Positions 46,735 to 49,700 of a stretch of 64,000 nucleotides of DNA are shown here, one piece after another (positions within the stretch are counted from its first letter, which is position 1; each line of letters begins with the position of its first letter). A program made the position numbers. Source of the stretch: Escherichia coli (GTDB lineage: Bacteria; Pseudomonadota; Gammaproteobacteria; Enterobacterales; Enterobacteriaceae); the NCBI RefSeq assembly GCF_044324875.1, contig NZ_CP172185.1; one strand, given 5' to 3'.

Positions 46735-49700
46735 TTATGTGAACTGAACTGTGTTTTGTTAGCGGGGGATGTTTATTGATGATTCGGGAGTGTTTAAGAC
46801 CTGATGGCGTTATGCTCCCAAGTTTATTTTATATAAAGATCCAAAAGCAAAAACCCGCCTTGTGGGCGGGTTCTTAAGAATTAGTGGTGCCGGACTCGGA
46901 ATCGAATATTTCATTTATCATATTGATATTTGTGTGATTTATTTGGTTTGATTAAAAATGTACCCTCATTTGTACCCGTAGTCCCTTTTGATATTGAAAG
47001 GGAATCACACTCGGGATCAGGCTGAGAGCACAGAAAGAAAGTGCTTGGCTATTATATCGTTAATTCTGTCAATCAGTTCCAGCCTTTTGAAAGTGATGTG
47101 TGCAGATCCCTTCTTAAAATATTTAATGATGAACATCTCGTCTTCATAGCGCTCTTTACCCTGAACGGACTGGATGTGACCATCCAGACGAATAGTGATG
47201 TTTTCCCGGTTGTCGGGGATCGGTTTGCCGCTGAGCAGATGCAACATTCTTTCCAGGTCAGCCAGGCGATCTGCCTGCATTCCACTGATAAGATGAAATC
47301 CCCACCGGTCCCATCTCACCAGATTGTTGATAATGATTTTACTTCCAAATTTACAGGGAGAGTTGGTTTTATAATTCCAGCTCAGTTCCCTGAAGACGTT
47401 AATCACTCCCCGCTTAAACACCTCATCCTTGTTCTGGTGCACTTGTTCAAATGTGCTCAGAATGTTCGCTTCACTGATTTCCGGAAAATTATCATATTCC
47501 AGTGACCTGTACCATGTATCACGTGCCTGTGCATCCATTAAGGAAAGCATCCCGGAACGCTGCATCAGGTTACGCCAGATTTCGCGGTCAAGATTCCGGG
47601 TAATGGCTTTCATTGCTGTTTCTGGTTTCTCCATCAGCCAGCAGCCACAGCGAAAATTCTGTTTCATCGCCCAGTCCGGGGCGGCTTTACCGCCAATACT
47701 TTCCGTCAGTGCTGAGATTTCTGTCAGTTGCCGGATAAGCGTGTCGATTTGCAGCAGTGTACTCTTTCGTACAGCCAGGATGTGTCTGATACTTGTGGAA
47801 CAGATAACGGCTGTATGTCCGTTGACCGCGTTCGGGTGGGGGATTGTGATATATGACATTATGGGGTTTCCTTTCTGTTTATAAACGAAAACGCCAGCTC
47901 TGTTCAGGCTGGCGTCAGTGGAATGAAGTATGGTGAGTGAGACTCACGCGCTCAGGTGAATGAGTTGCAGGTGACGCAGGGTACGGACATCCTCCTTGGC
48001 CTGTTCGATACAGGGCAACAATGCTGCCGAATCCGTTTTATCCTCATTGTTGTCAAAGATAATCCCCGATTCGCAGTCGATATTGTCCTGCAGCCACGCA
48101 ATGTCGTAAACGGTGGTGGAGTGCAGGTTGACTGCTGGTCAGGGTCGTCCACCACGCGGAGTGAATAACCGTATTCAGCGACCTTGTTAATCAGTTCAGT
48201 GAGCTCAACACCATCAATGTCAACGACAATTCGCCCTATATTCAGTGCCTGTACGTTAACGCTGTCTGCTTCCAATGTCAGGGCCAGTTTCATCATTTCG
48301 CCTCCGGATACTTACCCAGGGTAATGTTATTTACCGTTCTGTAATTGTCGCGGGTCATCAGGCCGGTCGCCCTGCGAGCCCGGAGGATATCGATGCTGTT
48401 TATTAACTGAGAGCGGGTACAGGTGCTGAATCCCGGCTGGTCGGTACGCACCAGCGCGTATTTTTCCACGAGAAAGTTCACCGCATCACACAGTGAAATG
48501 CCAGCCTCAATATGCTGCTCAATCACACGTTCATCGGCAAACGGTGTGTCATGCAGTGTGAGGCCGTAATGCTGGTCCAGCAGCCGGGTCAGCAGTATCT
48601 GCCAGATTTCAAGCGGAGACGGGCGTGAACTGGCCGCTTGCTTGGGTAATACAGGTAATGTTTTCATTTTAAGTTCTCAGTAATGGGGGAGATAAAGGTG
48701 AGATATTCGGGATTATGCTGTTGTTGCGGGAACTGCTGGTGTCGGATAAACAGCCATATAAACGTAGCCACAACTGCCGAGGGTGTCGGCTTCGCAGGTC
48801 AGCCCTTTTGCATACAGCGTGACGGTATGCTGATGACGGGGACTGAGTTCACCGCTGGTGAGCATTAATTCCAGTTGTTTCATCAGCAGCGGAAAGGCCT
48901 GGTCCGGATGGTATGCATCTGCGTCGCTGAAGCGGCCTCTGATACCGGCGCGGTCGGCAAGGTAATGCAACCGGTTACCCTCCTGCACCAGACAGGCCCC
49001 GAAACAGGGCGTCACGGTGCAGGGTAGTCCCCACCAGGGGCGGTCGTGATTGTTGTCGGGGAGTGTGTCTGACACGATAAAGTCCTCACAGAAAATCGGT
49101 TAAGAATGGTCCGGTAGTGGCGATAATTCTGCTCATCAGAATGCCCTGACTCAGTTCAGGGTGACACTCATCAGGCGGACATACGGGCCAAAACTGTCCT
49201 TACGGCGTTCTGCAAATACAGCCAGCACACCGGGAATATCCTGTACTTCACGACCGGTATACGTCTCAGCACTGCCGTGCCAGCGGTATTTACCGGTACA
49301 GAACGGAAAAAGACGGGATGTCGGATGTTGTTGGTGAATACGCATGGCTTCACCACGGGTGATAATTTTCATAATGGGATACCTCTGAAGACAGAAGATA
49401 AAAGTGAAAACAGGTGTGATGTGGTTGTGACGGGTTAAAGCAGACCATGTTCGGCAAAGGAGAAAACCTGGCTGCCACCGACTATCAGATGGTCCGGCAC
49501 CCGGATATCCACCAGGCCCAGTGCCTGTACCAGACGTTCCGTGATAAGGCGGTCTGCCTTGCTGGGTGTGACTTCACCGGACGGGTGATTGTGCGCCAGC
49601 ACCACGGCAGCGGCATTGTGGTACAGGGCGCGTTTAATCACTTCCCGGGGATGGACTTCCGTGCGGTTGATGGTGCCGGTGAAGAGGGTTTCACCGGCAA

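Follow-up and report, generated by a model that had tools for sequence, protein, structure and literature searches.

The 3' end of tRNA-Phe at the probable boundary between a kps capsule locus and a pheV genomic island in Escherichia coli

Results

Genes and features of the locus

The window (the whole stretch of E. coli DNA analysed, 64,000 nucleotides) carries the following features from left to right. Positions are those of the window.

29532–30068, plus strand: gspM/yghD, the last gene on the left side in common with K-12 (96.7% identical to K-12 as far as 30055; score of 399.9 bits against NF007274 YghD, which exceeds the curated cutoff)
30056–46836, no strand: 16.8-kb kps segment; at this place, from the end of yghD to the pheV terminator, K-12 has 113 bp instead
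31152–32654, plus strand: JUMPstart element (31152–31190; Rfam RF01707, 53.6 bits) and kps region 3 (matches to the KpsM family and to an ABC ATPase)
31219–31995 and 31992–32654, plus strand: kpsM and kpsT, respectively, within region 3
32881–37641, plus strand: kps region 2, serotype-specific, comprising just two genes, one for a 1137-aa product containing a HAD-type hydrolase domain and one for a 385-aa TPR protein
37732–45730, minus strand: kps region 1 with kpsF, E, D, U, C and S (NCBIfam matches to KpsF/GutQ, KpsS, CMP-Kdo synthetase (KpsU) and polysaccharide export protein; RefSeq annotation of relatives)
44711–45730, minus strand: kpsF, left of the repeat
46504–46686, minus strand: remnant of an IS110-family transposase on the kps side of the boundary, annotated at the equivalent place in strains Ch1, C4 and 300033
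46837–46884, minus strand: native 3' flank of pheV with the orphaned pheV terminator hairpin (46876–46848), identical to the K-12 sequence directly downstream of pheV
46885–46906, minus strand: probable attR of a pheV genomic island, in tRNA sense TTCGATTCCGAGTCCGG-CACCA, i.e. the 23 nt at the tRNA-Phe 3' end less one deleted nucleotide, identical to the attR in Table 1 of PMC11537424
46907–64000, no strand: probable integrase-distal 17.1 kb of a pheV island (GI-pheV or PAI-V type), which runs past the right edge of the window and is absent from this site in 300033, C4 and K-12
47017–47859, minus strand: DUF4942 gene, the first inside the island boundary (Pfam PF13708, E = 9e-66; same junction annotation in relatives)
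47858–49887, minus strand: CP4-44-like yee module with homologues of yeeS/radC, yeeT, cbeA, cbtA and yeeW (identity to CP4-44 of K-12, RadC family match, annotation of Ch1)

The kps segment

The segment shows the layout of an E. coli group 2 capsule locus, with region 1 (kpsFEDUCS), a variable region 2, region 3 (kpsMT) and a JUMPstart element upstream of kpsM. It has the type II secretion genes on one side and pheV on the other, and the same layout is annotated in Ch1, C4 and 300033. Collinearity with K-12 stops at 30055 and restarts at 46837. Comparison of window 30030–30068 with K-12 placed the start of the insertion within the final codons of yghD/gspM; the residues at the C-terminus are unlike those of K-12, and the product is still 178 aa long and matched end to end by the YghD model. 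The GC content of region 2 is 30–36%. When region 2 (query 32655–37731) was searched for in 5,426 complete E. coli genomes, it was found in 14, in all of them at an identity of at least 99%; one of these records is labelled 'O17_K12a'.

All the kps genomes examined (Ch1, C4 and 300033) have the IS110 remnant in the interval from kpsF to the pheV terminator, whether pheV is occupied or not. The remnant is part of the kps segment and not of the island. That it records the first delivery of kps is a speculative suggestion. Outside the segment, the sRNA C0719 was detected on the minus strand between glcB and glcA (11126–11347; Rfam, 294.5 bits), which is, like JUMPstart, expected here.

The repeat and the pheV flank

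The 22 nucleotides at 46885–46906 read TGGTGCCGGACTCGGAATCGAA in the window. On the same strand, the 3' end of K-12 pheV reads TGGTGCCCGGACTCGGAATCGAA and continues with CCAAGGACACGG into the tRNA body. In reverse complement, the fragment corresponds to the final 23 nt of tRNA-Phe minus one C of the CCC run, so that 22 of the 23 positions match with a 1-nt deletion and without any substitution (17 nt and 5 nt are exact on the two sides of the deleted base). Past the fragment, the window has TATTTCATT where the tRNA has CCAAGGACA. An ungapped search with the 23-mer allowing up to three mismatches found no match in the window because the difference is a deletion. No second copy of the pheV 3' end was found in the window by blastn-short with the full tRNA, the 23-mer and the CFT073-type attR as queries; the next-best matches were exact 9–13-mers at chance level, none of them between gspM and kpsM. 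No tRNA was detected by ARAGORN in the 64-kb window, nor was an integrase found within it, and C0719 and JUMPstart were the only matches that passed the Rfam gathering thresholds.

An earlier description made from the window alone (the sequence-only reading) had reported a tRNA-Phe fragment at these coordinates, in minus orientation, with a count of 22/23 and without a tRNA body, lying between kpsF and a CP4-like module, and no further repeat between gspM and kpsM. All of this agrees with our results: the body is absent according to both ARAGORN and the comparison with K-12, kpsF lies to the left and the DUF4942 gene with the CP4-44-like yee module to the right, and blastn-short gave one copy in the whole window.

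The 48 nt to the left of the fragment (46837–46884) are 100% identical to the K-12 sequence directly 3' of pheV. The blastn comparison of the K-12 yqgA-pheV-yghD region with the window gave two collinear blocks. The first one aligned K-12 yghE/yghD with window 28566–30055 at 96.7% identity, and the second one, 71 nt in length, aligned window 46837–46906 with the 23-nt tRNA end and the 48 nt that directly follow pheV (70/71, E = 1.2e-28). A terminator-like hairpin is present within the 48-nt flank on the minus strand (46876–46848); it is the pheV terminator, parted from its gene. The repeat is thus made up of the terminal nucleotides of pheV within the 19–23 nt range of attR sites (22/23, one 1-nt deletion), and it is joined to the native pheV downstream sequence, terminator included, over 48 nt, as is characteristic of a terminal attR. 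The exact 70-nt terminator-plus-attR sequence occurs at an identity of at least 99% in 861 of the 5,426 complete E. coli genomes, and the two top-listed matches are 100% identical.

Island genes within the window

The yee module shares 87.1% identity over 2,084 nt with yeeS-yeeW of CP4-44, a cryptic prophage of K-12, and is collinear with it, and the label 'CP4-like module' in the sequence-only reading was therefore well chosen. The homologues of yeeS, yeeT, cbeA, cbtA and yeeW have kept their order at 87% nucleotide identity. CP4-44 is located elsewhere on the chromosome, whereas the module of the window terminates a pheV island distally and is adjoined by the DUF4942 gene; the K-12 annotation lists none at the equivalent position. 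NCBIfam gave no match for most of the proteins of the yee module. The visible 17 kb of cargo includes genes for a LacI regulator, PTS IIA/IIB/IIC and a transketolase, as in the islands of the Ch1 and KOr019 types. PADLOC found no defence-system match among eight island ORFs.

A low-GC patch (33–42%) is present within the island at 52477–55280. It contains a 407-aa ORF on the plus strand (52477–53700), which had no match in Pfam, NCBIfam or PADLOC, followed by about 1.5 kb almost without ORFs. The patch is flanked by a YeeP-like GTPase gene and by an ORF annotated in relatives as 'inovirus Gp2 family protein'.

The island boundary in a strain without the island

In strain 300033, one of the 14 genomes with this region 2, the order is yghD, the same kps cluster, the IS110 remnant, intact tRNA-Phe and yqgA, and the island is absent. 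Its alignment with window 12637–46906 is a single stretch of 34.3 kb at 99.25% identity, and the repeat's final base (46906) is where it ends. To the right of this breakpoint, 300033 continues into the tRNA body and the window into the DUF4942 gene. The kps region 2 sequences of the two are 100% identical. This strain (NZ_CM128588.1, 1–34254) is a human stool isolate from Mozambique which shares the glc-to-gsp-to-kps stretch and provides a near-isogenic empty site. A collinearity break at the repeat in island-free relatives, as expected for an attR, was found with 300033 and likewise with C4 and K-12. According to these alignments, the island boundary lies between 46906 and 46907. The earlier proposal of an integrase-made direct repeat is supported by the native pheV flank adjoining the fragment and by the end of collinearity with 300033 at 46906.

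The far end of the island in relatives

The complete genome closest to the window across the junction was that of Ch1 (98.4% over window 46400–47400, with an identical fragment), which covers 91% of window 44000–64000 at 96.5% identity. The order in Ch1 is yqgA, tRNA-Phe, a tyrosine integrase gene, an island of about 61 kb, the repeat, the IS110 remnant, kpsF to kpsM and yghD. The intact tRNA-Phe (2465659–2465734, plus strand) and a 421-aa tyrosine integrase (2465932–2467197) lie at one end; the repeat (2526807–2526828, in tRNA sense) is found 61.1 kb downstream of the tRNA-Phe in the same orientation. The integrase contains the domains Arm-DNA-bind_3, Phage_int_M and Phage_integrase and scored 249 against NCBIfam PRK09692, below the cutoff of 434. 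At attL of Ch1, intact pheV is followed by island sequence with a different hairpin.

An intact tRNA and an integrase further to the right, as proposed by the sequence-only reading, were thus seen in this relative, 61 kb on and in the same orientation, the window itself carrying neither of them within its 64 kb. Since the window shows just the distal 17.1 kb of such an island, its own intact pheV and integrase should lie past position 64000. No genome identical to window 44000–64000 was found among the 5,426 complete E. coli genomes, the best ones covering 91–95% of it at 95–96.5% identity.

The widest cover of window 44000–64000 (95%) was given by KOr019 (NZ_CP091665.1). The first integrase gene in KOr019 adjoins a 19-nt 3' fragment of pheV, TGGTGCCCGGACTCGGAAT (about 8549–8567), and not an intact tRNA. 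The fragment is succeeded by another island, which carries a yee module of its own, and farther on by a class 1 integron with sul1, sul2 and CTX-M-2. Altogether, the region is longer than 160 kb. Over the approximately 130 kb followed rightward, no intact pheV was encountered; a tandem or composite array was found instead. Islands can therefore stack at pheV, and because of this tandem array the distance to intact pheV in the source genome is not predictable.

Independent occurrence of kps and the island

Natural and chimeric junction sequences were used as queries against the 5,426 complete E. coli genomes. The kps side joined to the repeat and the island end was found in 542 genomes, and the kps side joined to intact pheV and yqgA, i.e. 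with pheV empty, in 209 (strain C4 was inspected). The K-12-type yghD flank joined to the repeat and the island end without kps was found in 707 genomes (ET776 and ES9 were inspected), and K-12 has neither kps nor the island. All four combinations occur, and kps and the island are thus two separate insertions which segregate independently of each other, one on each side of the former pheV terminator.

The kps locus had been placed by the sequence-only reading on the core side, outside the island. This holds for its position, as shown by the 209 genomes with kps and unoccupied pheV and the 707 with the island and without kps, but not for its assignment to the core genome, since kps is foreign and absent from K-12. 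With 16.8 kb in place of 113 bp of K-12 and with a low-GC region 2, kps is accessory DNA, although it is not flanked by pheV repeats.

Discussion

We are highly confident that the window holds the attR and the distal 17 kb of a P4-type island inserted in pheV, and that kps lies outside this island and was gained independently. Sequence identities, exact breakpoints and the independent presence or absence of kps and the island across genomes were observed directly, and we infer integrase catalysis, present-day mobility of the island and the presence of intact pheV with an integrase in this genome. A P4-like tyrosine integrase would recombine the circular island (attP) with the last approximately 23 nt of pheV (attB). 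An intact tRNA would thereby be rebuilt at the integrase-proximal end (attL), and the distal end (attR) would keep a copy of the tRNA 3' end, still linked to the terminator that pheV had before the insertion. This scheme is drawn from established knowledge of P4-type islands and from the cited papers (PMC11537424, PMC10272209). Both ends fit it, with intact pheV followed by the island at attL of Ch1, and the island, the repeat and the native terminator at attR in the window.

A likeness of 22 nt to a tRNA 3' end might in principle arise by chance, and a 15-mer with two mismatches allowed is expected 0.14 times per window. The sequence-only reading had itself named a chance 22-mer as an outcome that would overturn it. 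The fragment, however, has 17 exact nt plus 5 nt around the deletion, it is conserved at this locus in 861 genomes, and the comparison with K-12 showed that the match runs on through the 48 nt of native pheV flank (70/71 over 71 nt, E = 1.2e-28), which excludes chance; the probability left to this explanation is negligible. The fragment could also be a stump of pheV that lost its 5' part by deletion or by an unrelated insertion, without any site-specific recombination. Such an origin would account for the 22 nt of tRNA left without a body, and PMC10272209 loosely terms the tRNA 'truncated'. Nevertheless, hundreds of genomes share the breakpoint to the base, its position is that of the published att core (PMC11537424), and the other end in Ch1 has intact pheV with an adjacent integrase in direct orientation. 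We therefore regard a stump as highly improbable.

The third alternative concerns kps. The locus and the island could form one composite pheV pathogenicity island which arrived as a whole, the fragment being an internal scar. This agrees with how PAI V of strain 536 and PAI-CFT073-pheV were defined in the past, and PMC7387560 places the K15 capsule cluster in a composite pheV-associated island. It also agrees with the foreign character of kps, which is absent from K-12, replaces 113 bp of it and has a region 2 with a GC content of 30–36%. On the other hand, the gspM side of kps has no pheV-derived repeat, and the native pheV terminator directly adjoins the fragment, which marks the latter as a terminal and not an internal attR. 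Moreover, 209 genomes have kps and no island, one of them with a region 2 identical to that of the window, and 707 have the island and no kps. A common arrival is thus improbable, if somewhat less so than a stump, and the reading of two separate insertions is preferred.

The structure is already known, and our analysis is a correct rediscovery of a published arrangement. The attR TTCGATTCCGAGTCCGG-CACCA, deletion included, is listed for APEC O1, S88, ED1a, H10407, 536, 042, 55989 and other strains from several phylogroups (PMC11537424, PLoS Genet 2024, Table 1). In that study, the island of strain 536 is 48.8 kb long, the sole conserved gene is that of the P4-type integrase, remnants of yee modules are described, and the island end is placed before the kps locus where the repeat is absent. 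Our repeat resembles this GI-pheV attR (23-bp imperfect class) in its sequence with the deletion, its locus, its orientation to yghD and the distal yee-module remnant, and the repeat itself shows no difference at all. For CC95, a PAI-V of about 52 kb was described which adjoins kpsF and has 22-bp repeats at its ends, the order being type II secretion genes, kps, truncated pheV, PAI-V and a P4-like integrase; intact pheV was reported as the other state, and no fewer than 14 excisions were inferred (PMC10272209, Nat Commun 2023). The locus studied here is like this PAI-V next to the K1 kps and like pheV' of 536 and K15 strains (PMC7387560) in the succession of type II secretion genes, kps, the 22-bp pheV fragment, an island of about 50 kb, a P4-like integrase and pheV. 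The alternative island-free state with intact pheV is also known there, and both states were reproduced here for the kps type of the window. In contrast to these systems, capsule region 2 is here neither K1 nor K15 and belongs to a rare two-gene type found in 14 of the 5,426 genomes.

This copy of attR may be poorly mobile, because a mismatch in such repeats was found to lower the excision frequency (PMC11537424). The deleted attR is present in 861 of the 5,426 genomes, whereas attL stays perfect. A perfect 23-mer on the same island end was found in one genome, that of ES9. ET776 and ES9 (L005 and L006, about 740–770) are frog-associated isolates with the same island end and without kps, which differ just in the 22-nt versus 23-nt repeat. 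The perfect repeat of ES9 is possibly an assembly error or a homopolymer sequencing error, since yghD is annotated as frameshifted in both genomes. It might be supposed that the deletion (GGG to GG) is borne on the attP of the island and passed on in each cycle of integration and excision, and that it does not result from random decay. We consider this rather unlikely; it would need strand exchange within the last approximately 7 nt of the tRNA (GGCACCA). If it were true, population data could show where the crossover by the pheV integrase takes place.

The value of these results lies in precise annotation, i.e. an island boundary at 46906/46907, an orphaned pheV terminator within 46837–46884 and a kps insertion at 30056–46836. 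The repeat sets the right annotation boundary, with the mobile island ending at 46906 and the capsule locus being a separate accessory segment. Since the island and kps are separate, each can be gained, lost or exchanged independently of the other, which bears on the reading of virulence islands and of capsule switching in extraintestinal E. coli.
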